Source: Candidatus Sulfotelmatobacter sp. (GTDB taxonomy: Bacteria; Acidobacteriota; Terriglobia; Terriglobales; Acidobacteriaceae). From it: DNA of 64,000 nt. The notes beneath the pieces are model-generated. The model saw only the letters and a list, made by a program, of their open reading frames with translations. It was not told the DNA's origin and made no database searches. Positions within the stretch are counted from its first letter, which is position 1. Every line of letters begins with the position of its first letter. Of the stretch, positions 2,050 through 54,943 are shown piece after piece. The translations under genes and the position numbers were made by a program. The stretch covers positions 15,542 to 79,541 of the forward strand of contig DATBZH010000037.1 of assembly GCA_036513255.1 (NCBI GenBank), given 5' to 3'.

Positions 2050-2148
2050 GGAAATCCTCCTGGGAATGAGAAGAGGTAGTTTAACTCAGGCGATGGTTCG
2101 GTGGTTTCGGCTTGATATAGTGGAGCGTCGTCGACTGAAAGGGCTTCC

Positions 2149-2499
2149 ATGCGATTGCTTTTGAAATGGCTATTGAGCGGGCTCGCAGTTTGGATTGTGG
2201 CGCAGGTGGTCCCGGGAATCTATGTGAGCGGAGTATTTTCCGCGCTGATTGCCGCGCTGGTGATTGGCTTTGTTAACGCGACGATCGGTGCCGTGCTGAA
2301 GATTCTGACGTTTCCTTTGACTTTAATTACGCTGGGGCTGTTCTGGTTTGTGATCAATGCGTTGATGTTGAAATTTGCTTCGGCGCTGGTGCCTGGGTTT
2401 CAGGTGCGCGGATTCTTCGCGGCATTTGTGGGCGCAATTGTGTTGAGTCTCGTGAATATGATGCTCCGCTGGCTGGTCGATCCGCGGCATGAGGGATGA
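2149..2499 (+). CDS. small 4-TM membrane protein (phage holin family IV / YvlD-like)
   Basis: 116 aa and almost entirely hydrophobic, with four helices. The pattern (VPGIYVSG...LIAALVIGFVNATIGAVLKILTFPLTLITLGLFWFVINALML) resembles PF04020-type proteins. Confidence 0.6.
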   Translation: MRLLLKWLLSGLAVWIVAQVVPGIYVSGVFSALIAALVIGFVNATIGAVLKILTFPLTLITLGLFWFVINALMLKFASALVPGFQVRGFFAAFVGAIVLSLVNMMLRWLVDPRHEG

Positions 2500-2509
2500 G
2501 GCTGGCTGC

Positions 2510-2565
2510 GAAAGAAAACCTTTACCACTGAGGCGCACAGGGATGTCGCAGAGGAAACACAGAGG
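2510..2565. repeat. REP-like intergenic element, TTTACCAC type (copy 2)
   Basis: See 317-370. The shared head is GAAA(A/G)AAA..CTTTACCAC(A/T)GAGG and the shared tail is CACAGA. Confidence 0.6.
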
Positions 2566-2647
2566 TTAGAAACTTCGCAATTTAGGCCCCATGTCTCGCC
2601 ACGGCGGCGGGGCATGGGGCTTTACTTTTTTGCTGGCTATTCTTAGA

Positions 2648-4228
2648 TCATTTGGAGAGCAGGCCGAAGACGCCGACCCCGTTGGTTGTTCCTACATACA
2701 CTTTGCCATTGGCGATTGTCGGGGTGATGAATTTGTTGCCGTCGCCGAAGTTATCGCGTCCACCCGATGCCTGGTTGGTGTTGTAGAGTTCCGTCAGAGT
2801 GCTGGGAGCGTAGGCGTGCAGAACCGCGGGATTTGTATTTTCGGTCGCCCAAAGAATTGAGTTGGCCCCGTTGTTGGACGATACGCTGAGCGTCGCTCCG
2901 GGGAAGGCGAAAGTGTTGACGGACTTCGCAGCCGGGGCAGTGAGCAGCTTGGCATTTTTGAATTGAAAGGCGAAAATTGGCGACCCCACGGGGCCGTAAT
3001 AGAGCCGGCCGTTATAGTAAGCGGGACTGGCCCACAGGCCGCCAGGCAAAGCTCCGGCGAGTTCCTGATAAATCTTGTTGCTGCCGGAGTTGAACTTTCC
3101 CATCGAGTTTCGATTTATGAGATAAAGATTGCCATCTTTGCCCGCGCCCGCCGTAAGTTGCCACGTCGTGCCGGCAGAATCCTTTTGATCGGGCAGAAGA
3201 AGAGCACCGCCCGAGCCCAGGTCTACGTCGCCGTCATTTTCGCTTTGCTCGTTATCCATCTCGAAGTAGTCCACTACCGACAGCCCGCCTTTCGTGGAAA
3301 GCCTGAGGAAAGCGTTGCCATAGTCGCCGCTCGTGGGAAAGCCGGAAGAATTCAGCTTGGTGTCAAAGAGTCCATTGGCATCGAGCACAAACATGTTCCC
3401 GCTGTTATCGAGCGTGAGGCCGGCGCCGGAGCCCCAGATGGCGCCTTCGTTGCCGTTGGGGGTTAGGTTGAGTACGTAAGTCTGGGTAAGTTTGGTCGAA
3501 TTGTAGGCCATGATCCATCCGGTGTAGGGGCGAATGTCGCAGTGCGAAGCCCAAGTCAGATAAACCGTTCCATTCGACAGCAGCAGCCCGGAGCGTTCTT
3601 TGTATTGCGAAGGATCGAAGATCACATAGCCGCCCGAACTGTTGTCACCCGTGCCCGGATATTTCGCGGAGATGTCGACCGGGCCCTTGTAGAGCTCAGC
3701 ACCGCTGGCGGCGTCGAGCGCGTGCAGGCGCTGGTGATAAGCGCCGGAAGAATCCTTGGACATGGCGACGGTGTAGATGACTCCGTTGGAGCCGACGGGG
3801 CGCGCGATGACGGGAGTCGAGGTGATTCCGATCTCGGGCTCGACCTGGCTGCAGCCGCGATCGTCGGAAGTAGTTTCACCGGATTTGAGTGCGGTGACAT
3901 GCCAATAGGGTGCGCCGGAATCGGCGTCGAAAGCATAGACACTATCGTGTTCGGTGGCCACGATGAGCACGTTGTGCGTTCCTCCGGCAATCGTGACGGC
4001 GGAAAGATAGAGAGGCTGGGCGTCGACTTTGCCGTCGACGGAAAGAACGAACAGTTTGCCGAAGGTGCTTGCGGTTACGTTGCTGGGTGTCAGGATGGTT
4101 TCTTTGGCATCGAGGGCGGTACGGGCATTATTGTTGCGGTAGGTGAGGACATCTTGAGAGTGGGCTGGAATTGCGACGGCCACTGCGGCTAACAGGATGA
4201 GAGTAGGGGAGAACTTACATGCTTTCAT
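2648..4228 (-). CDS. secreted PQQ-like beta-propeller repeat protein
   Basis: 526 aa with a signal peptide (MKACKFSPTLILLAAVAVAIPAHSQ). Repeated Gly/aromatic beta-propeller-like blades run through the protein. No catalytic motif was recognised. Confidence 0.55.
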   Translation of the reverse strand: MKACKFSPTLILLAAVAVAIPAHSQDVLTYRNNNARTALDAKETILTPSNVTASTFGKLFVLSVDGKVDAQPLYLSAVTIAGGTHNVLIVATEHDSVYAFDADSGAPYWHVTALKSGETTSDDRGCSQVEPEIGITSTPVIARPVGSNGVIYTVAMSKDSSGAYHQRLHALDAASGAELYKGPVDISAKYPGTGDNSSGGYVIFDPSQYKERSGLLLSNGTVYLTWASHCDIRPYTGWIMAYNSTKLTQTYVLNLTPNGNEGAIWGSGAGLTLDNSGNMFVLDANGLFDTKLNSSGFPTSGDYGNAFLRLSTKGGLSVVDYFEMDNEQSENDGDVDLGSGGALLLPDQKDSAGTTWQLTAGAGKDGNLYLINRNSMGKFNSGSNKIYQELAGALPGGLWASPAYYNGRLYYGPVGSPIFAFQFKNAKLLTAPAAKSVNTFAFPGATLSVSSNNGANSILWATENTNPAVLHAYAPSTLTELYNTNQASGGRDNFGDGNKFITPTIANGKVYVGTTNGVGVFGLLSK

Positions 4229-4415
4229 TACGAAACCCTTCTTGATCTAAATTCGGGAAGTGGCGTGACGGGTGGCGATGGGTTAGTTGCAGAAATTCGC
4301 CAAGAGGAAGCCGATGCCGATATTTTCTGAATAAAACCTCGAAGTATTATGGAATGATGGAATCCAGGAAGCAATAATCGAAGGGACATAACGGCGGTCT
4401 CAGAGCTAGCGGCTT

Positions 4416-4658
4416 ATGAATCAGATGACAACCATGGCTCAACTGGGAAGGCTGTTTGTTGTCTTCGGAGCGACTTTAATGGGAGTGGGCGTCGGTTTGT
4501 TGTTGCTGGGAAGAACCGACCTTCCGCTGGGCCATCTGCCGGGGGATATTGCTTATCGCGGGAAGAACTCGACGATTTATTTCCCGCTGGCAACTTCCAT
4601 TTTGTTGAGCGTAGTGATTTCGATTGTGCTGTATGTGATTGGCAGGGTGCGGAGATAG
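4416..4658 (+). CDS. DUF2905 family small membrane protein
   Basis: 80 aa. LPLGHLPGDIAYRGKNSTIYFPLATSILLSVVISIVLY matches the DUF2905 signature (PGDI...FYFP). Confidence 0.7.
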   Translation: MNQMTTMAQLGRLFVVFGATLMGVGVGLLLLGRTDLPLGHLPGDIAYRGKNSTIYFPLATSILLSVVISIVLYVIGRVRR

Positions 4659-4672
4659 GGCCAAGTCGAACT

Positions 4673-5188
4673 CTATTTTCTGGTGAGTTTCACGCGGGCG
4701 AAGGGCGTCAGCTTGCCGCCGACTTCGTTGTCCATAAGCCACTGCCAGGTGCCGGTATTCTTGTTGTAGGAGAAAGCTGTGTGGATGCTGCTTCCGTCCG
4801 GGCTGTTGAACAGGAATGCGATTTCGTCGCCGTTGCGTTTGCCGTGACCCATGGTCTGGGCTGAGAGGCCGCCACCGCTTGTCGAATCCAGCCACAGGCA
4901 TTTATATTCGCCGGACGATTCGTTCCATTCGATAAAGACGATGGCTTCATACGCGGGCTGGCCTTGGGCATTCTTTTCGCGCGAGGTTTCATGCATGCGC
5001 ACATACTCGCGGTTCAACACCCAGTCGGATTCGATATCGTGCGTCGTCTGGCGACCGGCGATCGTGCCCTGAAGAATCCAACGGCCTGTCATGCGATCCA
5101 GCAGCGGATCAGGGCGGGTTGGCTGTTGCCCGGAAACGACCAACGAAAGTAGGGCGATCAAGGCAAAGATTGTAACGGTGCTTTTCAT
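4673..5188 (-). CDS. secreted DUF1579-like protein
   Basis: 171 aa with a signal peptide. MTGRWILQGTIAG...YEAIVFIEWNESSGEYKCLWLDSTSGGG resembles DUF1579. A second DUF1579-like gene lies at 48005-48532. Confidence 0.5.
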   Translation of the reverse strand: MKSTVTIFALIALLSLVVSGQQPTRPDPLLDRMTGRWILQGTIAGRQTTHDIESDWVLNREYVRMHETSREKNAQGQPAYEAIVFIEWNESSGEYKCLWLDSTSGGGLSAQTMGHGKRNGDEIAFLFNSPDGSSIHTAFSYNKNTGTWQWLMDNEVGGKLTPFARVKLTRK

Positions 5189-5257
5189 TGCGGAATCTCC
5201 CGCGCCTTGAAAATGATTACCGTTCTTACATTTCTATTTCACATTTCTATTTCAAAT

Positions 5258-7489
5258 CTATTTTAAATTGATCGTGTCTTTCAACGGCAGGTTTTGCGAA
5301 GAGCCGCCGACCATGAATGTGTAATCTCCGGGGGCGATTTGCCAGGCATTTTTGTCGACGTTAAAGATGCTGAGGTACAGGGGATCAATGTCGACGGTTA
5401 CCTTTTTGCTCTCGCCGGGATTGAGTTTGACTTTGCTAAAGCCGACCAGGCGCTTGGGTGGTTCGCCGGCGCTGTCGGGGAGGGCGGCATAAACTTCAGC
5501 GATCTCCGCTCCGGGGCGGCTGCCGGAGTTGGTCAGAGTGAAACGTACGCTCACGTTTGTCCCGGGGCTAAGCTTGAGAGCGGAGTAGGAATACGTTGTG
5601 TAGGACAGGCCATGACCAAAGGGGAAAAGGACTTGCTTGTGTTCGGCGTCATACCATTTGTAGCCTACCTTGAGACCTTCGTTGTAGGTGGTTTGGAAGG
5701 CGGGAAGACCTTTCAGGATTTCTTCCCAATCGCGAGGGCCGCCGTGGGAAAGCGAATGGGCGGGCGGCTTGACGATGGTGGGATGAGGAAGATCGGCGTC
5801 GCTGACCGGAAAAGTGATGGGCAACTTCGCGCTGGGGTTGACCTCGCCGAAAAGAATATTGGCGACGGCTTCGGCGCCGCGGCTGCCCGCGTACCAGGCT
5901 TCGAGAATCGCGGCGGGTGCGCCGACCCACGGCATGGTCACGGGGCTTCCGGTTTCAAGGACAACTATGGTGTGCGGGTTGGCGGCCGCGACTTGAGCGA
6001 TTAAATCGTCCTGCTTTTCGGGAAGCGAGAGGCTGTCGAGATCCATGCCTTCGCTTTCCCACTGATATACGAAGATAATGGCGACGTCGGCGGTTTTGGC
6101 CAGAGCAGCGGCGATTGCGGGATCCGCACCCGAATCGAAGGAGACGGTCGCGCCTGGAACTTTGGCTTTGATGGAACGCAGCGGAGACGTGGGAAACCAG
6201 ATGTGATCCTGCCAGTGAGTGCGTCCCTGGCCGGGGGGCATAATTGCATTGCCGCCGGGAGGATCGACCTGCGCTGAGCCTCCGCCGGAAATCATGCCTA
6301 CGTCGGCGTGAGGACCGATTACCGCGATGCTGTGAATCTTCGAAGCGTCGAGCGGAAGCGCATTTTCGTTCTTCAGCAGAACCATGCTTCCTTCGGCAAT
6401 TTTCTGAGCGATGTCCAGGTCGCGAGAAATGTCGATCACGCTTCTCTGCGGCGGATCGTCGATGACGCCGGTTGCGAACATCGAACGCAGAATTCGATGG
6501 ACGTGATCGTCCAATTGCGACATGGGAATCTGCTTGGATTCCACGGCCTGCTTGAATTTATCGGAATAGAAATACCAGTTGGGCTCTTCGTGATCGAGTC
6601 CGGCGGCGGAAGCTTTGGCGACGCTGTGAGTGCCTCCCCAGTCGGAGAGGACGAAGCCGGGGAAATGCCAGTCGTTTTTTAGAACGTCGGTGAGCAGGTA
6701 ACTGTTTTCGCAGGCGTAGTCGCCGTTGATGCGGTTGTAGGAGCACATGACGGCGGCGGCGTGAGAGGCCTGCAATCCGATTTCAAATGCGAGGAGATCG
6801 CTTTCGCGCATAGAACGCTTGTCGATGTTGGCGTTGACGGCGTTGCGTCCGCTCTCCTGGTCGTTCATGGCGTAGTGCTTGATGTCACCGATGACGTGCT
6901 GGGCCTGGAGTCCGGTCATAACGGAGCCGACCATCTTTCCGGCGAGGACGGGATCTTCGCCTTGATATTCGAAGGTCCGGCCGTTGCGCGGTTCACGTGT
7001 GAGGTTGACGCCCCCGCCGAGAGTCATGTTGTAGCCCTGGGCGCGAAGTTCTGTGCCGATGAGCGCGCCGTATTGATAAGCGGCGTCGAGATCCCAACTG
7101 GAGGCGGCTCCGAGATCGGAAGGTAGCGCGGTGGAGTAGCGGCCGTTCTCTCCGCTGGCGCGGACACCGTAGGCGGCGTCGGATATTTGAATCGGAGGAA
7201 TGCCGAGGCGCTCAACTCCGACGACATAGCCAGCGCCGCCGTCAGACATCACGTGCAGCGGGCTAAGCGGGCCAAGGCCTGCCATGCCGGTGCCGTGGAG
7301 CATGCCGATTTTTTCGTCGAGAGTCATTTCTTTGAGGACCATGGAAGCACGATCGTCGGGCGAGAGACTGGAGTTCATCCACGGGAATGGCGGATGGTCT
7401 TTGGAAGCGGATTGGGAAAATGCGGAAGCGGTGAAAAGCAACGCAACGAGAAGTACGGCGACCAAATTGGAGAGCGAACGCAGGGGCAT
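5258..7489 (-). CDS. bglX: glycoside hydrolase family 3 beta-glucosidase
   Basis: 743 aa with a signal peptide. It has the GH3 motifs KHYAMNDQE and FVLSDWGG (nucleophile Asp) and a C-terminal fibronectin-like domain. Confidence 0.9.
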   Translation of the reverse strand: MPLRSLSNLVAVLLVALLFTASAFSQSASKDHPPFPWMNSSLSPDDRASMVLKEMTLDEKIGMLHGTGMAGLGPLSPLHVMSDGGAGYVVGVERLGIPPIQISDAAYGVRASGENGRYSTALPSDLGAASSWDLDAAYQYGALIGTELRAQGYNMTLGGGVNLTREPRNGRTFEYQGEDPVLAGKMVGSVMTGLQAQHVIGDIKHYAMNDQESGRNAVNANIDKRSMRESDLLAFEIGLQASHAAAVMCSYNRINGDYACENSYLLTDVLKNDWHFPGFVLSDWGGTHSVAKASAAGLDHEEPNWYFYSDKFKQAVESKQIPMSQLDDHVHRILRSMFATGVIDDPPQRSVIDISRDLDIAQKIAEGSMVLLKNENALPLDASKIHSIAVIGPHADVGMISGGGSAQVDPPGGNAIMPPGQGRTHWQDHIWFPTSPLRSIKAKVPGATVSFDSGADPAIAAALAKTADVAIIFVYQWESEGMDLDSLSLPEKQDDLIAQVAAANPHTIVVLETGSPVTMPWVGAPAAILEAWYAGSRGAEAVANILFGEVNPSAKLPITFPVSDADLPHPTIVKPPAHSLSHGGPRDWEEILKGLPAFQTTYNEGLKVGYKWYDAEHKQVLFPFGHGLSYTTYSYSALKLSPGTNVSVRFTLTNSGSRPGAEIAEVYAALPDSAGEPPKRLVGFSKVKLNPGESKKVTVDIDPLYLSIFNVDKNAWQIAPGDYTFMVGGSSQNLPLKDTINLK

Positions 7490-7742
7490 GAATGATCCTC
7501 ATTGTTGTTTCGTTTCTACTTGCTAGGACGTTTTGTTGCCTTGAAGTTGACCCGGAAAATCTGTGCCAAATCGATAATGTTAACGCTTTTTGGCGATTAG
7601 TGCTTGATAGCGGGCGGCGCGGCTCGTGATGGCTTCGGGAAGATTGACGGCGTTGGCGGGCGAGGGCGCCCGCCCCACACACAGGTCACTATCGGCGTTC
7701 TGTTAGCATGGTTCGCTCTCGATCCCTATCGCTGGAGTCGCC

Positions 7743-9059
7743 ATGAACTTGACCGGACGCCGGGCTTTCCTGCGCAACGCTGCAAGCACCGCAGCACTCA
7801 CTCTCACTGCACGAATTTCGACTTTTGGCCGCACCCGCAGCCTCAGAGTTTCCGCATCAATGCCTTCGGCGGCTGCTGCTGGAGCAGGTTTGCCGGATCG
7901 CCTGGATCCCGATTGGTATCGGCGCAAAATCAGCCAGGTGCAGCAGGAGATGGAGCGTCGCAAACTGGATGCGCTGGTTCTCCTCGACTCCCATAATGTG
8001 ATTTATACGACGGGTTACTTCCATCTTTCCACCGAACGGCCGCTGGGCGTGTTGATCCCGAAATCCGGCGACCCGGCGCTGTTCGTTCCCGGTCTCGAGA
8101 GCGATCAGGTGAAGCTGTGGTGGGTGAAAGACTTTGAAGCCTACTTCGACTTTCCCGGCCCGGTGAACCGCGTGCGCTGGATTTTTGAGCGGGTGGCGCG
8201 GCGTGGCCTGGATAAGGGCCGCATTGGTATAGAGGAAGCTAAACCGAGCCGGATGCGTGAAATCAAGCTTGGCGCGCCGAACGCGGAGATCGTTGAGGCC
8301 GGTGATCTGATTGAGCACATGCGCTGGGTCAAAGATGAAGACGAGTTGAACATCATGCGCCGCGGCATGTATTTCTCCGATTTCTACGTTCAGGCTGGGC
8401 GTGACTATGTGCAAAATCATGGCGGCGTGACCGAAGACGAAATTCTCAAAAACGCAGCCGATGCACTCGCCGACAAGATGTCTTCAGAATTGAAAGCGGT
8501 GGTCGGCGTCAGTATCGATGCACCGTTCGGAGGACTGGTGCCGTTTGGCAAGCGTTCGGCGTTTCCTCATGCCGTTCCCAGCAAGGATCGGTTGAAAAAA
8601 GGAGACGCCCTTATCCTGAGCTACGGCACACAGGTTGGCGGTTACGCCGTGGAAGATGAGCGGTCGTTCGTGATCGGCAAGCCGACTGATTATGCCAAGC
8701 GGCTCTATGAGGCGATGCTGGCCGCGCATGACACCGGAGTAGAAAATATGAAAGAGGGCGCGATTGCCGAAGAGGTAGACAAGAAGAGCCTGGACCAGAT
8801 CCGCAAAGCGGGATTTGAAAAGTTCCTCAAGCACCGGACGGGGCACGGCATCGGCCTCGAAGGCCATGAATCTCCCTGGATCGCCGAGGGCGACAAGACT
8901 GTTCTGAAGCCGGGAATGACCTTCAGCTGCGAGCCCGGCGTCTACGATCCGGATTGGGGCGGGTTCCGTCACTCCGATACGGTCATCGTAGGTAAGGATA
9001 AGGGAGAGGTTATCAACAAATATCCCACGCGCCTCGAAGACATGGTGATTGAGATTTGA
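7743..9059 (+). CDS. M24 family Xaa-Pro peptidase with twin-arginine signal
   Basis: 438 aa. The TAT leader is MNLTGRRAFLRNAASTAAL. The creatinase/prolidase N-domain is followed by a pita-bread fold with HRTGHGIGLEGHE and FSCEPG motifs. Confidence 0.8.
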   Translation: MNLTGRRAFLRNAASTAALTLTARISTFGRTRSLRVSASMPSAAAAGAGLPDRLDPDWYRRKISQVQQEMERRKLDALVLLDSHNVIYTTGYFHLSTERPLGVLIPKSGDPALFVPGLESDQVKLWWVKDFEAYFDFPGPVNRVRWIFERVARRGLDKGRIGIEEAKPSRMREIKLGAPNAEIVEAGDLIEHMRWVKDEDELNIMRRGMYFSDFYVQAGRDYVQNHGGVTEDEILKNAADALADKMSSELKAVVGVSIDAPFGGLVPFGKRSAFPHAVPSKDRLKKGDALILSYGTQVGGYAVEDERSFVIGKPTDYAKRLYEAMLAAHDTGVENMKEGAIAEEVDKKSLDQIRKAGFEKFLKHRTGHGIGLEGHESPWIAEGDKTVLKPGMTFSCEPGVYDPDWGGFRHSDTVIVGKDKGEVINKYPTRLEDMVIEI

Positions 9060-48004: not shown

Positions 48005-48532
48005 ATGAAGCGGATAGCAATCGTGGTGGCGGGATTTCTGCTTTGCGCAGCCGCGGCACTGGCCCAGATGGAAGCCCCCAAGCCGGGTCCGGAGCTCAAG
48101 AAACTCGACATGTTTACTGGTTCTTGGACTCTGGATGGCGACATGAAGCCGGGTGCGATGGGCCCTGGCGGCAAGACCACCGAGGATCAAAAGTGCTCGT
48201 GGATGGAGGGCGGCTTCTACCTGATCTGCCATTTCGACTACAAAACCTCCATGGGAAACGGCGTGGGCCTCGCGGTGATGGGATATTCCACCGAAGACAA
48301 AACTTACACCTACCGCGAGTTCAATAGCCAGGGCGAATTCGACGACTCCAAGGGTACGCTCGATGGCGATAACTGGAGTTGGACGAACGATATGAAGATG
48401 GGCGCCATTACCATGAAAGGCAAGTACACGATGAAGATTCTTTCTCCCACGTCCTACAACTTCGCCTATGAGGTATCGCAGGACGGCACAAAGTGGACGC
48501 CGGTGATGGACGGCAAGGCGACGAAGAAGTAG
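48005..48532 (+). CDS. secreted DUF1579 family protein
   Basis: AGGAGA lies 7 nt upstream of the ATG at 48005. PKPGPELKKLDMFTGSWTLDGDMKPG is the DUF1579 N-terminal signature. Confidence 0.65.
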   Translation: MKRIAIVVAGFLLCAAAALAQMEAPKPGPELKKLDMFTGSWTLDGDMKPGAMGPGGKTTEDQKCSWMEGGFYLICHFDYKTSMGNGVGLAVMGYSTEDKTYTYREFNSQGEFDDSKGTLDGDNWSWTNDMKMGAITMKGKYTMKILSPTSYNFAYEVSQDGTKWTPVMDGKATKK

Positions 48533-48620
48533 GCCGATTCAAGCAGCCAACTGAACCGCCATCGTCCCCTGAATTTACCGGCCCACGCACCCGCCTAGTA
48601 ATCGCGGCCGGGTCGCGAGA

Positions 48621-49313
48621 CTATTTTGCTCCACGCGCGAGAGCGCCCAGATTTCCCGATTGCGCATTGCTGACGGCCGCTCCGTGAAGTTCGCCTTCGA
48701 TAATCTTCGTGTTCGGAATCGTCTCGTAGGCGTAGCCGGTAAGGATGCTGGGCCCGTGCAGATCATTTATGCTCAACCGCGCCCAGCCATAATGGGTCTG
48801 CCCATTGATCGTGAACCTCAGGCCAAGATACCGGTTCGTGGAATGCGCCCACGGTCCATTCGACCACGAGTAAGGACCGTAGGCTCCGGCAGCGATCATA
48901 ACGTTGCCGTAGCTCGGCGTTCCGTCCCCGGTAAGAAATTTCTCGCCCGGCCCAACGGGAACCCCAAAAAATCCTGCCGCCACTTCAGACGCAATCGCCC
49001 CGCCCGGCCGAAAGCCATTCCCGGCGGCCAGGGGATTCAGGACGATACAGTTGGAATGTGACGACCCACATTGACGCCTAAGAACTTCAAAATCAGGGAT
49101 GCCGTCATTGTTAAGATCGATCGTGACCTTGCCGGTATCCTGGAACGAGACGTTCGCCGGAGTGTAGACAACTTCGCCCTCAGCAACTTTCGGCGCAGCC
49201 AACATGCCGATACCGGCAGCGCTGGCCACGGCCACGTAGGCAGCCAGGCGCCGGTCGAGTTTCGCGTTGATGGGTGATGGCGTGCGACGGGAAACGACTT
49301 TAGGCTGAGTCAT
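48621..49313 (-). CDS. secreted hypothetical protein
   Basis: 230 aa. It has an N-terminal RR-containing leader and hydrophobic segment, and a Gly-rich beta-type sequence with HYGWARLS. No family name could be assigned. Confidence 0.5.
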   Translation of the reverse strand: MTQPKVVSRRTPSPINAKLDRRLAAYVAVASAAGIGMLAAPKVAEGEVVYTPANVSFQDTGKVTIDLNNDGIPDFEVLRRQCGSSHSNCIVLNPLAAGNGFRPGGAIASEVAAGFFGVPVGPGEKFLTGDGTPSYGNVMIAAGAYGPYSWSNGPWAHSTNRYLGLRFTINGQTHYGWARLSINDLHGPSILTGYAYETIPNTKIIEGELHGAAVSNAQSGNLGALARGAK

Positions 49314-49442
49314 TTTTTAATTCCTCGCTCAAGGTTCGATAACTGCAGGGCCGAGTGGGAGTTGCGTGCGCCGAGTCCCACTGAAAGCGAAGAGAATTGT
49401 GTCACCTGCGGAAAAGCGCGTCAATCGCCCTTTTGGGGGGTC

Positions 49443-49450
49443 ATTTTTCG
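49443..49450. repeat. target-site duplication, left copy (ATTTTTCG)
   Basis: An identical octamer lies at 52203-52210, immediately outside the two terminal inverted repeats. Confidence 0.8.
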
Positions 49451-49473
49451 GGTAATAATATACTTGACTGACT
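49451..49473. repeat. terminal inverted repeat, left
   Basis: GGTAATAATATACTTGACTGACT is the exact reverse complement of 52180-52202. Confidence 0.9.
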
Positions 49474-49538
49474 GGAGATGATAATGGAAACTGAAAAGGC
49501 CGTGACAGGGCAGGCTGAGGACCGCGAAGAGCGGATTC

Positions 49539-49826
49539 TTAATTTGATTTACCGGGCGGGAGAGGGTCTGTTAAAAGGGCTTCAAACCCCGCTAGTTTTC
49601 CCGCCTCCAGAAGGTTCGCCCGCATTTGAGCATACGCTTCGCGAGATCGTCTCTGACGTTCAGGATCGGCTTGTGCATCGTCCGAAATCCGCTTTATCTG
49701 TTGCGGAGTAAACCCAGCCTTGAACAGAGTTTCGCCGAATGCGTCTCTGTCTATCCACATGCGCTCTAACTGATCGGCGATCTTGCTTAGGAGAACAGCA
49801 ACGGCCTGTAGCGAAGGCGACGACAT
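49539..49826 (-). CDS. cargo gene 3: small helical hypothetical protein
   Basis: 95 aa from MSSPSLQAVAVLLSKIADQLERMW. The start lies 11 nt after the stop of the 2-TM gene. A +strand ORF (49484-49711) overlaps it and cannot be excluded. Confidence 0.45.
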   Translation of the reverse strand: MSSPSLQAVAVLLSKIADQLERMWIDRDAFGETLFKAGFTPQQIKRISDDAQADPERQRRSREAYAQMRANLLEAGKLAGFEALLTDPLPPGKSN

Positions 49827-49837
49827 AGCGCCGCGAA

Positions 49838-50050
49838 TTATACGCCGTTGCGGAGCGCGGAAAACAATCTCCACGCGACAAAAGCAAATAGAAGCCACAA
49901 AAAACCTACAAACAGATCGAAGCCTGTAGCTTGGTTATTGACGGGAGAAATGAAACCCAAGGTACCGTGGAGCACGGTTGGTAGCCACAATATAAGCACA
50001 AGCAAAAATCCAGCAATGGCTCGGCCTCTACTTTTCGATTCTTTAGGCAT
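49838..50050 (-). CDS. cargo gene 2: small 2-TM membrane protein
   Basis: 70 aa with two hydrophobic helices (AIAGFLLVLILWLPTVL; LFVGFLWLLFAFVAWRLF). The start lies 6 nt after the DUF3800-like stop. Confidence 0.55.
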   Translation of the reverse strand: MPKESKSRGRAIAGFLLVLILWLPTVLHGTLGFISPVNNQATGFDLFVGFLWLLFAFVAWRLFSALRNGV

Positions 50051-50056
50051 AATGGC

Positions 50057-50869
50057 TCAAAGTTCCCCCGCTTTTTCGAGATAATCCAGCATCTCATGCA
50101 CGTTCTTTAATTCTGGTATTTCCCCGTCGTCAGCTTCCTCTTTTTGGCTTGCGAACTGTTCGCATCTCTTTCGAGTCCAGATTGAGCCGAGAGTTCGCAC
50201 ATGGTCTAAATCCTGGAATTGTTCCTTCGGCAAATCTGGGCGGAACGGCTCCTTGCTCATTCGCTCCGCGAATAATCGCCTGATATACCACGATTGGGCA
50301 TCCGCAGCTTGGAGCGGCAGGAATTGCAGGTCATCCTCAAACTTCGGCGAGGGCGCTATAAGGTGCCTGAGTTCCGGCGGCAGCATCTTATGGGTCAGTT
50401 GATACCAGCGCGGAACCTTCGCCGCCAGTCGCGGGTTATTGTCGAAGATAAAGTCCACGGTGTCTTCCGATTTTAGTGCGATCTGATTCCATAGAATCTT
50501 CATCACGATGTCGAAGAGGGCGAGGAAGTACGGATCGTCAAACTCACGGTGGACTTTGCCTTTGATGTGCGCCTTGTAGAGATCAATAGGCACCACGGAA
50601 ACCACGGAGGCGTGAGCGGCCATCCGAATCAGTGAGAAGAATTTCTTGATGCGCTCATTTCGGGCAGTCGCCTTCATTCCGCCGAACTGCTCGCTGCGGG
50701 TCGCCGCTTCGCGCATTTTGAAATATTTGAGCGACGGAGGTTCGTCGAGCAAACCTTGCCAATGGTCGGAAAAATCCTCCCACCAATCTAGGCGGCTAAC
50801 GTAGCCGGATAATACGAAGACGGGCTTCCCGGTGCCACTGTCATCGACAAAGGCTTGGAACGTGGTCAC
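50057..50869 (-). CDS. cargo gene 1: DUF3800-like protein
   Basis: FQAFVDDSGTGKPVFVLSGYV near the N-terminus resembles the DUF3800 D-x-S-G start motif. The GTG at 50869 follows GAGGA. The ORF-track ATG at 51001 would add about 45 aa and overlap the divergent small ORF. Confidence 0.6.
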   Translation of the reverse strand: MTTFQAFVDDSGTGKPVFVLSGYVSRLDWWEDFSDHWQGLLDEPPSLKYFKMREAATRSEQFGGMKATARNERIKKFFSLIRMAAHASVVSVVPIDLYKAHIKGKVHREFDDPYFLALFDIVMKILWNQIALKSEDTVDFIFDNNPRLAAKVPRWYQLTHKMLPPELRHLIAPSPKFEDDLQFLPLQAADAQSWYIRRLFAERMSKEPFRPDLPKEQFQDLDHVRTLGSIWTRKRCEQFASQKEEADDGEIPELKNVHEMLDYLEKAGEL

Positions 50870-50985
50870 CCTGCGCGATCCTCTCTTGTGCTGAGGAAGA
50901 CCAGAAACCAGCGCTCGCAGTCTCTCGCTGGGAGTTTGACTTTCGACGCACACTGCGACTACCCTGCTTTCTAGGTAGCCCCAGA

Positions 50986-51174
50986 GTGAGCCAGAAGCCA
51001 ACGCGCCCGACGCAATCCGCCAAGAATGTCACAGGCGATTTTGGCAAGTTCACGGATTTTATGCGGAAACTTGTAGCCGTTCCGCATTCGGAAATCAAAG
51101 CTAAACTCGACGCCGAAAAACTGGAGAAGAAGCGGAAACGCGCTTCTTCCCGCGCTTCCCACGGTAAGGATTAG
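50986..51174 (+). CDS. small basic hypothetical protein inside the element
   Basis: 62 aa with a Lys-rich C-terminus (KAKLDAEKLEKKRKRASSR). It converges on the transposase stop. Weak call. Confidence 0.35.
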   Translation: MSQKPTRPTQSAKNVTGDFGKFTDFMRKLVAVPHSEIKAKLDAEKLEKKRKRASSRASHGKD

Positions 51175-52154
51175 AACGGCGTTTCACCCACCTTGCCAGT
51201 TACCTCAGCGAAGGTTAACCGCTTCCCTACAATCTGCGATAAGACTAGGCCGAATCGTTCTGCATCGGTCAGTTTGCGTCCGTTTTCATCCTTGCGGTTA
51301 TTGTAGCGGAACATTTGCTCATCCAAGTAACGCGAGAGATGGAACGGCTCTACAGCAACGTAGGTTCCATTCAATCCACGCTTGAGCAGGCTCCAGAAGT
51401 TCTCCAGTCCGTTTGTGTGGACTCGCCCGCGAACGTATTCCTTGGTGTGGTTCACAATCTCATGCACGTAGTTTTTCTGGCCTAGAGTCCGGTACGCTCC
51501 AGCTTCATCGGTGTAGACGTTGGAATCTTCCGCCACATGCTTGAGCACTTGGGCCTGTAGTGTGGCGCGGGAAGTGTTCGGCACAATGGCAGTCCGCACC
51601 TTACGCTGTTCGCGGTCAAGGAAACCCATCACGATAGTCTTGCTGGCGTTCGGGTCGCCGCCTTCCTTGGTCATCTTGACTCGCTTCCGCATGTGCATAT
51701 TTTTCATCTTCCCGCCGATGTATGCCTCATCGACTTCGACTTCGCTGTTCTCGCCGCCGCCGAACTTCTGGAAAGAGCCTGTCTGCATTGCGAGTCTGAT
51801 TCGGTGCATCATGAACCAAGCGGACTTCTGAGTTACGCCCAGAGCGCGGTGAATCTCGTAAGACGAAATCCCATTTCGGCAGCTTGCCAGCAACCAAGTA
51901 GCAGGAAGCCATTTCTCCAGCGGGATCGGCGAGTCCTCAAACACGGTGCCAATCTTGAGTGAGAACTTTTGCTTGGGGTGCTTTTCGTAGCAGCGATAGA
52001 GCCGCGCTTTCTCAAGGTAGGTTACCTTTTCGGATTCGCAGTAAGGGCAGCGAACTTTGCCATCTGCCCAGCGCACGGCGATCATGAATTGACGGCAGTT
52101 CTCATACACCGCAAAGAACTTAATGGCGTCTTGGAGTGTCTGTGGGCCTTTCAT
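51171..52154 (-). CDS. IS1595 family (ISXO2-like) DDE transposase
   Basis: 327 aa. The N-terminal zinc ribbon is CPYCESEKVTYLEKARLYRC. The HTH region is GISSYEIHRALGVTQKSAWFMMHRIR. The catalytic candidates are VEVDEAYIGG, VYTDEAGAY and NGLENFWSLLKR. Confidence 0.9.
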   Translation of the reverse strand: MKGPQTLQDAIKFFAVYENCRQFMIAVRWADGKVRCPYCESEKVTYLEKARLYRCYEKHPKQKFSLKIGTVFEDSPIPLEKWLPATWLLASCRNGISSYEIHRALGVTQKSAWFMMHRIRLAMQTGSFQKFGGGENSEVEVDEAYIGGKMKNMHMRKRVKMTKEGGDPNASKTIVMGFLDREQRKVRTAIVPNTSRATLQAQVLKHVAEDSNVYTDEAGAYRTLGQKNYVHEIVNHTKEYVRGRVHTNGLENFWSLLKRGLNGTYVAVEPFHLSRYLDEQMFRYNNRKDENGRKLTDAERFGLVLSQIVGKRLTFAEVTGKVGETPF

Positions 52155-52160
52155 GCACCC

Positions 52161-52189
52161 ACATTAGCAAAATATCGTTAGTCAGTCAA
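52161..52189 (-). promoter_or_regulatory. candidate transposase promoter partly inside the right inverted repeat
   Basis: On the minus strand: TTGACT (52189-52184), a 17-nt spacer, then TAATGT (52166-52161). Only 6 nt separate the -10 from the A of the transposase ATG, which suggests a leaderless or near-leaderless mRNA. Confidence 0.45.
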
Positions 52190-52202
52190 GTATATTATTA
52201 CC
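52180..52202. repeat. terminal inverted repeat, right
   Basis: AGTCAGTCAAGTATATTATTACC is the exact reverse complement of 49451-49473. Confidence 0.9.
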
Positions 52203-52210
52203 ATTTTTCG
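52203..52210. repeat. target-site duplication, right copy (ATTTTTCG)
   Basis: See 49443-49450. Confidence 0.8.
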
Positions 52211-52381
52211 CGATTGACTGGGAGTTTAGACGTTCCCGGTATTCCATCTCTGGGACGAATAACTCCCGTCGATAAGTTCGAGGCGACGATGCCGTACTCA
52301 CGGTTGCCGCAGGAACTACGGCCATACATTTATAATCTTCCATTCAGCTATCCATCACATTCCTCACGGTAAGGAAATATT

Positions 52382-54943
52382 TTGCTCGATTATCTAGGCG
52401 ATTTAAGACGGACTCACATGTGCGGAGCCTTACGCGCTGCTGATGCTGGCAAGAAAACAGTGCTCATGGGCTGGGTCAACCGCCGCCGTGACCACGGCAA
52501 TCTTCTCTTTATCGACCTCCGTGACCGCACGGGACTGACCCAGGTCGTCATCAATGCCGAGCGCGATGCTGCCATCCACGAAAAAGCCGGAAGTCTGCGC
52601 AACGAATACGTGATTGCCGTAATCGGCACGGTGAAACTGCGCGAGGCGAACACGGTCAACCCGAACATGCCCACTGGTGAAGTGGAACTGGTCGCCGAAG
52701 AGTTGCGTATTCTCAACGAATCCAAACTGCCCCCATTCCTGCCCTCGGATACGGCGCTTACCAACGAGGAGACGCGGCTTAAATATCGCTATATCGATCT
52801 GCGCCGCGACGTGATGCAGTTCAACATCGAGACGCGCCACAAAGTCGCGAAAGCAATCCGCGACTATCTTTCCGCGCAGGGATTCTTCGAAATCGAAACG
52901 CCTTTCATGACGCGCTCTACGCCGGAAGGCGCGCGTGACTATCTCGTGCCCAGCCGCGTTCAGCCTGGCACGTTTTACGCGCTGCCGCAGTCGCCGCAGT
53001 TGTTCAAGCAAATTTTGATGATCTCGGGGTTCGACAAATACTTCCAGATTGTCCGCTGCTTCCGCGACGAAGATTTGCGCGCCGACCGCCAACCCGAATT
53101 CACCCAGATCGATTTGGAAATGACGTATCCGCAGCCCGAACGTGTGTGGGAAGTAGTCGAAGGATTTCTAACGGCGGCCTTCGCCGCCGCCGGCTCTGTG
53201 ATCGAGACACCTTTCCCGCGCATGGATTATGACGAAGCAATCCGCCTTTACGGTATCGACAAGCCGGATCTCCGTCTTTCCGCCTTCACCGACGTGCGCG
53301 AATGTTTTGCTCCGGAAAATTTGCAGCAGTTGGCCGTGAATGCGAACTTGCCGGTGGTGGCCATTCGCATTCCGAAAGTCGGTGAGCTTTCCCGCGCCGA
53401 GCGCGACAGCATCAAGCCGCTGTTCATTTCCAAGGGCGGAGCCAAGATATTCGAAGACTTCAAGCGAATCGAAAAGAATTTCTCCGAAGCCGCCGCGAAA
53501 ATTTCTGCGAAGGTCGGGAGTGAGCCCGGAGATCTGATTGTGATTGTCGCAGGCTCGGCGCAAACCGGCGAACGGACGGCGCTCCCGGCGAATCGCAAAG
53601 TCAGTCCGCAGGAACTCTCAATCTACGCTTCGGCCGGATTGCTGCGCCTTGCTCTGGCACAGAAATATGCCGACAAGCATGGCATGTTCAAAAAGTCGGG
53701 CGACCCGCAAAAAGATTTCCGTTTCGTCTGGGTCACCAACTTCCCCATGTTCGAGTGGGATGAAGGCGAAAAGAGCTGGATGGCCGCTCATCATCCTTTT
53801 ACCTCGCCGCATGAAGAAGACATGACTTTGCTGGAAACGGGAGTTGACTCCGTTAACGACCGGCAATCGTCGCTGAGTGCGGTGCGCGCGCTGGCCTACG
53901 ACGTTGTGCTGAACGGCACGGAGCTCGGTTCAGGCTCCATCCGTATTCACCGCCAGGACGTGCAGAGCCGAATCTTCCGCGCACTGGGCATGACCGACGA
54001 AGAAGCCCGCTCTCGGTTCGGATTTTTTCTGGAAGCGCTGGAATACGGCACGCCTCCACATGGAGGCATCGCGCTGGGGCTGGACCGCATCGTCATGATC
54101 CTGACCGGAGCTGAGAGCCTGCGCGAAGTCATTCCGTTCCCCAAAACAGCTCGCGCCGTAGATTTGATGGTCGATGCGCCTAGCGATATTGGAATTGGCC
54201 AGGGTGATGAGTTAGAACTGCTCTCAGCTTGGCCAAGATTGTCCGAGCGCGAGAGGGCACTGGCAGGGTATTGCCAGAGCCTGTTGAAAATTGTAGACAG
54301 TCTCTTCTTCGATCGCCCCCTTAAATGGGAGACACACTTCCAGCAGGCGATGGCAATAAATCTCACAAAGGCGTACAACGATGCCCATGCTGCTGTGCAG
54401 CTTTCGAAAGCTGGATATGCCTTGCAGGCCGCTGCACTGTGCCGATCTATCGTGGAAGCAGCCGCCAATAGCGAATGGATTGCAGCGGAGCCTGAAGCCC
54501 GGGCGACGGCGTTTCTGAGGTCCGTTGGCCCCGAGGCGAAACGGTTGGCCGGCAAGATTCATCGGTCTGCACAGTCGAGAGAATCCCTCAATGCTTTGGA
54601 AAGAGCAAGCTCTCTCGCGGCAGATGCTGGATGGCCGAAGACAGTTCGGGAGCGTTTTCAGGGTTTAGGGGAGAACGCTGCTACATATGAGCTCGTTTTC
54701 AGTATGTTGTCGCAATTTGTACACCCCACGGCAGCCTCGGTAGCAGCGGTTACCAGATACGACGGCGGCGAACTAAGTTTCCGTATCGGTCCCAACGACG
54801 AATTCGTCGAGCTTGCGTTGGCAATAGTTTTCGACTTCCTGTCGAATGTCGTGCTCACCGCAACCAAAGCCTTCGACCTGCCCCAAGGGGCCGTCCTAGA
54901 TGCTCGGAATGGCTTTCAAAAATTGCAGGCAGCCCTTAAATAA
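52382..54943 (+). CDS. aspS: aspartate--tRNA ligase with an appended non-synthetase C-terminal domain of about 250 aa
   Basis: The start is TTG, after AAGGAAA. Residues 1 to about 602 are a complete bacterial-type AspRS: OB fold, motif 1/2/3 regions (FRDEDLRADRQPEFTQID, GSGSIRIH, GGIALGLDR) and the PFPKT...APS end. The ORF then runs on without a stop for another 251 codons. Confidence 0.9.
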   Translation: MLDYLGDLRRTHMCGALRAADAGKKTVLMGWVNRRRDHGNLLFIDLRDRTGLTQVVINAERDAAIHEKAGSLRNEYVIAVIGTVKLREANTVNPNMPTGEVELVAEELRILNESKLPPFLPSDTALTNEETRLKYRYIDLRRDVMQFNIETRHKVAKAIRDYLSAQGFFEIETPFMTRSTPEGARDYLVPSRVQPGTFYALPQSPQLFKQILMISGFDKYFQIVRCFRDEDLRADRQPEFTQIDLEMTYPQPERVWEVVEGFLTAAFAAAGSVIETPFPRMDYDEAIRLYGIDKPDLRLSAFTDVRECFAPENLQQLAVNANLPVVAIRIPKVGELSRAERDSIKPLFISKGGAKIFEDFKRIEKNFSEAAAKISAKVGSEPGDLIVIVAGSAQTGERTALPANRKVSPQELSIYASAGLLRLALAQKYADKHGMFKKSGDPQKDFRFVWVTNFPMFEWDEGEKSWMAAHHPFTSPHEEDMTLLETGVDSVNDRQSSLSAVRALAYDVVLNGTELGSGSIRIHRQDVQSRIFRALGMTDEEARSRFGFFLEALEYGTPPHGGIALGLDRIVMILTGAESLREVIPFPKTARAVDLMVDAPSDIGIGQGDELELLSAWPRLSERERALAGYCQSLLKIVDSLFFDRPLKWETHFQQAMAINLTKAYNDAHAAVQLSKAGYALQAAALCRSIVEAAANSEWIAAEPEARATAFLRSVGPEAKRLAGKIHRSAQSRESLNALERASSLAADAGWPKTVRERFQGLGENAATYELVFSMLSQFVHPTAASVAAVTRYDGGELSFRIGPNDEFVELALAIVFDFLSNVVLTATKAFDLPQGAVLDARNGFQKLQAALK

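Follow-up and report, generated by a model that had tools for sequence, protein, structure and literature searches.

The stretch of DNA analysed here, called the window throughout, comprises 64,000 nucleotides of an acidobacterial Candidatus Sulfotelmatobacter genome (contig DATBZH010000037.1), and the subject of this study is an insertion sequence (IS) of the IS1595 family, which spans positions 49451 to 52202 of the window (2752 bp) and was inserted as one unit. An earlier note on this DNA, made from its letters and a list of open reading frames (ORFs), had described three closely packed minus-strand ORFs between 49539 and 50869, the first of them DUF3800-like, as the cargo operon of a transposon and as a candidate defence or addiction module. 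The features of the element and its borders are the following, in positions of the window.

49443 to 49450: left target-site duplication, ATTTTTCG; the identical 8-mer lies directly outside both inverted repeats
49451 to 49473, plus strand: cargo-end terminal inverted repeat, GGTAATAATATACTTGACTGACT, complementary to 52180-52202 in 23 of 23 positions
49478 to 49711, plus strand: antisense shadow ORF of 77 amino acids (aa), no gene, judged by the ratio of non-synonymous to synonymous differences (pN/pS) of its frame
49539 to 49826, minus strand: h95, a 95-aa four-helix protein with function unassigned (homologs, pN/pS, AlphaFold2)
49838 to 50050, minus strand: tm70, 70 aa with two hydrophobic helices; additional cargo of narrow distribution (homologs, pN/pS)
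50057 to 51001, minus strand: DUF3800 protein, a predicted type-2 RNase-H-like nuclease (PF12686, homologs, AlphaFold2 model)
50986 to 51174, plus strand: orf62, a small basic protein of 62 aa (conserved motif; tail-to-tail with the transposase)
51124 to 51151, minus strand: terminator-like hairpin, an 11-bp stem with a T-rich tail (consensus scan only)
51171 to 52154, minus strand: IS1595-family (ISXO2-like) DDE transposase, 327 aa, full length (Pfam, NCBIfam)
52180 to 52202, minus strand: transposase-end terminal inverted repeat, the 23-nt perfect partner of 49451-49473
52203 to 52210: right target-site duplication, ATTTTTCG, the same 8-mer as the left copy

That the three ORFs are transposon cargo is borne out by the perfect 23-nt repeats (0 expected by chance; 100 shuffles, repeat search), the 8-bp duplication and the full-length IS1595 transposase. 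The cargo-end repeat shows the same consensus that terminates related elements, and a target duplication of 8 bp is typical of the IS1595 family (ISfinder family description). As the genes for the DUF3800 protein, tm70, h95 and orf62 all lie within 49474-52179, i.e., inside the repeats, the element unites the transposase type, bounding repeats, 8-bp duplication and internal passenger genes of a transporter IS. IS1595 is the family for which the 'transporter IS' (tIS) with passenger genes was defined, according to Siguier, Gagnevin & Chandler (2009) as cited in PMC3129680. Because the repeats and the target duplication are intact, the insertion looks recent and the element is probably still active, transposition being predicted from these two features together with the intact transposase. 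The element is almost fully coding, its non-coding part amounting to only about 65 nt plus about 25 nt.

Related loci, numbered with an L below, comprised 80 loci from species-representative genomes, obtained via an alignment of the DUF3800 protein, nine from metagenomes and in addition the contigs of individual homologs; tblastn and repeat searches were run on the fetched loci.

The transposase matched the Pfam family DDE_Tnp_IS1595 (PF12762, 4e-43) over profile positions 5-153 of 153, bears the N-terminal zinc ribbon Zn_ribbon_IS1595 (PF12760, 3e-7) and was recognised by the NCBIfam model transpos_IS1595 (NF033547, 1e-55). Its neighbour orf62 matched no Pfam family and is characterised by the motif F..F...M..L..VPHSEIKAKLDAEK, followed by a Lys/Arg-rich tail, which was retained in about 19 non-redundant loci despite strongly diverged DNA. 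In all of its occurrences orf62 converges on the 3' end of the transposase gene, whichever way the DUF3800 gene points; in the window, L108 and L109 the two genes share 4 nt at their stop codons, and the GTG start of orf62 aligns with the ATG of the L012 homolog. This small basic ORF, which the earlier note took as a possible regulator of the divergent cargo genes, is conserved, but its fixed partner is the transposase. The terminator-like hairpin of the consensus scan lies directly after the transposase stop, within the orf62 coding region, and might separate transposase from DUF3800 transcription. In L017 (about 5862-7994) the DUF3800 ORF continues in frame into an orf62 homolog with no intervening stop, which means either that the two are naturally fused or that a stop codon has been lost.

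The positions of the three minus-strand ORFs and the gaps of 6 nt and 11 nt between them agree with the ORF listing. As listed and annotated, the DUF3800 ORF extends over 50057-50869 on the minus strand and encodes 270 aa from GTG 50869, with alternative upstream starts at TTG 51001 (314 aa) and GTG 50953 (298 aa). Translation probably begins upstream of the annotated GTG, because homologs of about 50% identity retain the peptide RLRALVSGLPxxKRxxRR immediately ahead of the FQAF...DDSG core, and because this peptide was modelled as a helix (predicted local distance difference test, pLDDT, of about 85). In this peptide pN is below pS, and the position of TTG 51001 in the window is taken, in L081 and L001, by an ATG start ('MASR...'). 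The location first given for the large ORF is right, but its 270-aa start probably is not, a length of 298 or 314 aa being likely.

The Pfam model DUF3800 (PF12686) was passed marginally, with 22.2 bits against a gathering score of 21. The family identity, first read from the motif FVDDSGTG, is nonetheless firm, because the identical protein in NCBI, from an acidobacterial metagenome-assembled genome, is named 'DUF3800 domain-containing protein [Candidatus Sulfotelmatobacter sp.]', most of the 110 homologs found carry a precomputed PF12686, and of the viral models a DUF3800 protein from a phage matches best (E = 3.5e-8, template modelling score, TM, 0.51/0.64). Among 51 sequences, and in the numbering of the 314-aa form, D53 and D54 of the DDSG motif are at least 90% conserved, and D187 as well as Q231, A232 and D234 (Q231xxD234) are invariant, so that four acidic residues (D53, D54, D187, D234) are conserved. 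The protein thereby carries both parts of the DUF3800 signature, the N-terminal acidic motif D-[DE]-x-G and the C-terminal QxxD, that were described for the family by Mestre et al. (PMC7736814). The AlphaFold2 model built from the 51 sequences is confident, with a pLDDT of 89.5 and a predicted TM score (pTM) of 0.86, and the top 16 Foldseek matches to it in the PDB were all RNase HII/HIII, i.e., type-2 RNase H. Although these matches are weak (best E = 3.6e-3, TM 0.37-0.49, 9-14% identity), they agree with the RNase-H-like fold that had been named beforehand as one to look for. From the model and the conserved carboxylates the protein is predicted to be a metal-dependent nuclease with a type-2 RNase-H-like fold, and its ratio of non-synonymous to synonymous substitution rates (dN/dS) of 0.04-0.10 against close relatives indicates strong purifying selection. 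RNA motifs near DUF3800 genes, of which 11 have been published, are a frequent and not a defining association (Weinberg 2017). Rfam scans of 48500-53000 at E up to 10 and of 28 related loci at the gathering score gave no DUF3800-I to -XI motif and, of other RNAs, only two chance snoRNA-like matches. On plasmids, tblastn yielded five weak, solitary DUF3800 matches and no h95.

Both small genes downstream of the DUF3800 gene are, judged by their open frames and by pN/pS in their own frame, real genes. For h95, 11 homologs were found at 63-89% identity, and a profile search of 1.84 billion representatives gave 67 clusters, nearly all of them stand-alone proteins of 91-99 aa; the family shares a LE(D/N)LWIERE motif and a C-terminal PPPxGKPN tail (PPPxGKxN). 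The h95 frame is open in all six distinct DNA copies, with a pN/pS of 0.29 and differences mainly at codon position 3, against 1.2-1.5 in four of the other frames of the region and 0.41 in one antisense frame. There are only three non-self homologs of tm70 (81-84% identity); across three copies its pN/pS is 0.27, the frame is open in all of them and the differences are concentrated at codon position 3. The small ORFs of the earlier note thus carry a coding signal. The plus-strand ORF of 77 aa (75 aa in the public calls) was rejected as a gene and is regarded as an antisense shadow, because its frame has a pN/pS of 1.52. A long form of h95 with 119 aa was also rejected, most homologs starting at the aligned Met. 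In the public calls for 49478-50050 (L091 5820-6386) tm70 is omitted and h95 is replaced by the 75-aa antisense ORF; at the same locus the DUF3800 gene appears to be started too late.

The AlphaFold2 model of h95 shows four helices (pLDDT 72) and found no fold match in the PDB (best E = 2), and a profile search of PDB sequences gave low-complexity helical matches only. For tm70, h95 and orf62 no usable match was obtained from PADLOC, NCBIfam, PHROGs or Pfam, in line with the earlier statement that no named system fits; Raf1_HTH (E = 0.04) and two PHROGs of unknown function were judged to be noise. The gene tm70 occurs in three sequence contexts only, namely the window, L113/L114 and L104-L107, and is absent from L108, L093, L090, L081 and L001. 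In contrast to this narrow distribution, h95 was met without a transposase, DUF3800 gene or repeat nearby in L098-L103, and truncated by IS66 in L117; a hidden Markov model of its family, run against six-frame translations of L001-L116, revealed no hidden copies in elements of the convergent type described below. On its distribution across these sequences, h95 is a separate, independently shuffling tail module that is also found outside IS1595 elements.

Two groups of loci with these small genes deserve description in their own right. In L104-L107 (e.g., L104 4647-5539) a 5'-truncated and internally deleted DUF3800 gene, whose product is 93-98% identical to the window protein, is followed by tm70; these loci are homologous to the window precisely up to the ATG of h95, which serves there as the start of a different gene, of 104 aa. 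These loci sit in a DnaB-containing region, which may be phage or plasmid. In L118 (1-685) the gene of a 63-aa Lys/Arg-rich protein comes first and overlaps by 8 nt with that of an h95 homolog (65% identity); two copies of the palindrome CTTGCTAAGCAAGG lie upstream, and a serine resolvase adjoins in a sister contig.

A DUF3800 gene of this clade is paired with an IS1595 transposase in 48 non-redundant loci, and the recurring set consists of the transposase, a basic protein of about 60 aa (orf62) and the DUF3800 protein. Two architectures were distinguished. In the common one (40 loci), the DUF3800 and orf62 genes stand on one strand between the inverted repeats and converge on the transposase; the rarer one (eight loci and the window) reads inverted repeat, transposase, convergent orf62, DUF3800 gene pointing onward, tail, inverted repeat. 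Both share the order transposase, orf62, DUF3800 and differ solely in the direction in which the DUF3800 cassette points. In 23 loci the unit is flanked by repeats of the same consensus, 22 with a DUF3800 gene in the slot beside orf62 plus L109, and 20 of these 23 possess their own 8-bp duplications (17 perfect) at differing insertion sites; the hosts of bracketed elements include Acidobacteriota, Alphaproteobacteria and Gemmatimonadota. In L043 (5959-6957) a 1-kb cassette without transposase is likewise delimited by repeats of the same consensus and by a perfect 8-bp duplication, GATGCAAG, and it contains a single gene, an intact one for the DUF3800 protein. The closest DUF3800 relatives of the window (L090 81%, L081 77%, L001 75%, L002 63% identity) belong to the convergent type and have neither tm70 nor h95. 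Among loci sharing the inverted-repeat consensus, the transposase is 50-65% identical to that of the window, with DUF3800 identity ranging from none to 81%; as the one does not track the other, the modules recombine between elements.

How far this exchange goes is seen in elements with the scaffold transposase, orf62, X, h95 and repeat, where X is a member of one of three DUF3800 subfamilies (21-32% identical to each other) or a HEPN-like protein. The DUF3800 protein of L093/L097 is 31% identical to that of the window, with h95 at 70%, and in L113/L114 the DUF3800 protein is 21% identical, with tm70 at 83% and h95 at 87%. In L108 (1239-2180) and L109 (1390-2232) the slot gene is not of the DUF3800 family and encodes 280-313 aa; the two proteins are 27% identical (BLASTP) and share A-W-R-N-x-x-x-H, an Rx4H motif, and the L109 protein has a sub-threshold match to the Pfam family Hypoth_Ymh (E = 0.09). 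Ymh has been classified as a HEPN family (Anantharaman et al., PMC3710099), and on motif and match the slot protein of L108 and L109 is probably HEPN-like. Neither protein had a match in PADLOC or NCBIfam or in sequence searches of the PDB, and the target duplication of the L109 element is perfect. Since different DUF3800 subfamilies and an apparent HEPN-type RNase alternate, the slot seems to need 'a nuclease' and not a chemistry tied to the DDE transposase, and such alternation of nuclease types is the pattern of effector or toxin genes of conflict systems.

Our favoured reading is that the element is a complete transporter IS with a swappable slot for an effector nuclease of conflict type. 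Its structural part, i.e., an IS1595 transporter IS with the gene content given above, is close to certain; the statement as a whole is evenly poised between being right and being wrong. Transposase and orf62 form the backbone, with an adjoining cargo slot that holds DUF3800 here and in most relatives; in the window the DUF3800 cassette points toward the far inverted repeat and is followed by tm70 and h95 as a mobile tail module. The slot nuclease would resemble a toxin or a defence enzyme, have RNA or RNA-DNA hybrids as its substrate and help the element or its host to be retained. The likeliest regulatory or neutralising partner of the slot nuclease would be orf62, and h95 and tm70 would be dispensable accessories. 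A role in defence or addiction, as put forward in the earlier note, stays plausible in view of the HEPN-like siblings in the same slot, but hardly as a module of three genes.

Several observations weigh against this favoured reading. Neither the five window proteins nor the slot genes of L093, L108, L109 and L113 had a match in PADLOC-DB v2 at E up to 1. The element is located between a 230-aa gene of unknown function and aspS, amid housekeeping genes; its neighbourhood (transposase, aspS, permease, penicillin-binding protein, unknown ORFs) is no defence island. Viral contigs contained only nine relatives of the DUF3800 clade, which is no phage enrichment. The survey was seeded from the DUF3800 clade of the window, and the IS-linked fraction is not one for the whole family. 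The HEPN assignment for L108 and L109 consists only of the motif and the sub-threshold Pfam match, and in the DUF3800 literature (PMC7736814, PMC10910872, PMC12669027) nuclease activity is predicted and none demonstrated. Any antidote role of orf62 or h95 would be hypothetical; h95 adjoins unrelated effectors, which argues against a specific antitoxin, and the co-inheritance of a toxin with its small partner was seen neither for tm70 nor for h95, both being absent from the closest DUF3800 relatives and h95 occurring with unrelated genes. The gene orf62 does co-occur with DUF3800, equally, however, with the transposase and with the HEPN-like variant, and that DUF3800 and orf62 have accompanied the transposase for very long would fit a role in transposition equally well.

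Such a role is the content of the strongest alternative, in which the DUF3800 protein and orf62 are not cargo and constitute an accessory factor of the IS that aids or regulates transposition; the nuclease might process RNA-DNA hybrids or the donor or target intermediates, or it might control copy number. It would explain why 48 loci agree in the order transposase, orf62, DUF3800 despite divergence of the DUF3800 proteins to 21-35% identity, with catalytic residues conserved and dN/dS low, and why orf62 is locked tail-to-tail to the transposase; in the common architecture both genes even form a tight operon converging on the transposase, and in L017 they are fused in frame. However, siblings with the same repeats, transposase, orf62 and h95 carry the unrelated HEPN-like gene instead, in L109 with a perfect duplication, whereas the L043 cassette carries DUF3800 without any transposase. 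Neither is there room for a guide-RNA-like region, nor was an Rfam DUF3800 RNA motif matched. It also counts against an accessory factor that most members of the IS1595 family are single-gene elements of about 1 kb (ISfinder family description). Taken together, we consider this alternative unlikely, though it deserves to be taken seriously.

A second alternative corresponds to the earlier note, in which DUF3800, tm70 and h95 make up one three-component abortive-infection or addiction operon, the pairing of a large soluble with a tiny membrane protein being taken as the pattern of abortive infection. The three genes do lie on the same strand with gaps of 6 nt and 11 nt, so that they may well be co-transcribed in the window, all of them are under purifying selection, and the trio recurs once more, in L113/L114. 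Yet the closest DUF3800 relatives are devoid of both small genes, and in L113 the contrast between 21% identity for DUF3800 and 83-87% for tm70 and h95 points to recombination of a tail module and not to co-evolution. Moreover, h95 occurs without tm70 (L093, L108, L109), without DUF3800 (L098, L108, L109, L118) and near a resolvase, the homology of L104-L107 stops at the h95 ATG with a different gene after tm70, and PADLOC remained blank. Hence, with a single recurrence of the full trio and with tm70 confined to three contexts, neither the trio nor the soluble-plus-membrane pairing holds as a conserved unit: on comparison of these loci, DUF3800, tm70 and h95 are not one conserved system, and the operon explanation is very unlikely.

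Just as improbable is the third alternative, that the cargo genes are unrelated, tolerated hitch-hikers picked up by recombination between IS copies, for although modules shuffle freely, larger relatives contain miscellaneous extras and tm70 is rare, the same slot is filled by DUF3800 in dozens of insertions independent of one another, with strong purifying selection on the gene, its replacement is apparently another nuclease-type protein, and a DUF3800-only cassette has been mobilised (L043).

Going beyond the favoured reading of a transporter IS with a slot nuclease, it could be supposed that this IS1595 clade recruited the nuclease slot (DUF3800, in some elements HEPN-like) and the small basic protein as part of a strategy of its own, or that a new minimal defence or addiction module is at hand; both remain unlikely suppositions at present. 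If true, the clade could offer a guide-free counterpart of those transposon-encoded nucleases that promote retention or spread, or the module would be one that rides on an IS or on a transposase-less cassette, and there would be a first functional handle on DUF3800, the nuclease family that accompanies retrons, Cas12a2/a3 and Cas13.

Compared with known systems, the element resembles a transporter IS in its ISXO2-like DDE transposase with zinc ribbon, its short repeats, its 8-bp duplication and the extra genes inside. It differs in that the passenger is no occasional pick-up: DUF3800 and the protein of about 60 aa recur across a diverged clade in two orientations, and a DUF3800-only cassette and a HEPN-like alternative exist within the clade of the window. 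With type-2 RNase H (RNase HII/HIII) the DUF3800 protein shares the best structural matches in the PDB and the four conserved carboxylates, and its DDSG motif resembles the DEAG motif of RNase HII. On the other hand, the match is a weak one (E about 4e-3), the two kinds of protein are unlike in their C-terminal helical regions, the DUF3800 gene does not belong to the housekeeping genes and its activity is a predicted one.

DUF3800 proteins have been predicted to be RNase-H-fold nucleases that accompany retron type VII and Cas12/Cas13 loci (PMC7736814, PMC10910872, PMC12669027). With the DUF3800 proteins of retron type VII, Cas12a2/Cas12a3 (TPR-DUF3800) and Cas13 CASK (Csx32) the protein of the window has in common the Pfam family, the motifs D-[DE]-x-G and QxxD and a predicted RNase-H2-like fold. 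In contrast to these, its neighbours include no reverse transcriptase, CRISPR array, cas gene or TPR domain, its partner is a DDE transposase, it bears the N-terminal extension RLRALVSGLPxxKRxxRR of its own clade, and the Rfam DUF3800 RNA motifs are lacking. TnpB of IS200/IS605 and IS607 offers an analogy only, as an RNase-H-fold nuclease gene stably resident in an IS beside the transposase. Unlike TnpB and IscB, however, the DUF3800 fold matches type-2 RNase H and not RuvC, the element leaves no room for a guide RNA and matched no RNA family, and the transposase is of the DDE type; a TnpB-like guide-RNA mechanism is unlikely, because no DUF3800 RNA motif was detected and the element is almost fully coding. 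Toxin-antitoxin and abortive-infection systems with nuclease toxins (e.g., HEPN-based) are comparable in that a predicted nuclease stands beside small proteins on a mobile element and has HEPN-like siblings in its slot. The element differs from them in that no known toxin or antitoxin family is present and that orf62, the one small partner strictly co-inherited with the nuclease, follows the transposase instead.

In a literature search, which left ISfinder names out of the comparison, no paper linking DUF3800 to IS1595 was found. Passenger-carrying IS1595 elements and the DUF3800 family are each already known, and as an IS the element of the window is ordinary. Apparently new within the searchable literature, where we found nothing comparable, are three points: that DUF3800 and a small basic protein recur within clear boundaries together with an IS1595 clade, that a cassette may hold DUF3800 only, and that the nuclease in the slot is swapped. 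A family that recurs beside retrons and CRISPR effectors is met here as a stable resident of a simple DDE insertion sequence, and as a compact, portable unit of 2-3 kb the element is a test bed for DUF3800 function with respect to toxicity, protection and effects on transposition. Should the cargo be inert, the element would merely be one more transporter IS.

Some of the larger relatives carry miscellaneous extras, such as a nested IS3, XRE-type regulators and unknown ORFs. In L015 (about 6830-8000) an insertion was found that, judged by eye, looks like a nested IS3-type element, with a 267-aa integrase-like ORF and a 99-aa helix-turn-helix ORF, and both the larger size of this relative and its degraded target duplication are ascribed to it. 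L094 contains, at 2055-5593 and adjoining an h95-bearing element, a second IS1595-family unit with 29-nt inverted repeats that are 93% complementary; it encloses a 314-aa transposase, a 185-aa protein with a SocA_Panacea domain, an overlapping 127-aa ORF and a 304-aa ORF, and looks like toxin-antitoxin-type cargo on another transporter IS.

Beside the element in the window, the ORF of the aspartyl-tRNA synthetase (52382-54943, plus strand) is unusually long, with 853 aa in the ORF listing and 841 aa in the public call, and its product has a C-terminal extension of about 250 aa with the Pfam domain DUF5677. The aspS start lies about 180 bp downstream of the right end of the IS, a promoter-like site within the IS is directed at aspS, and the insertion may affect aspS expression.

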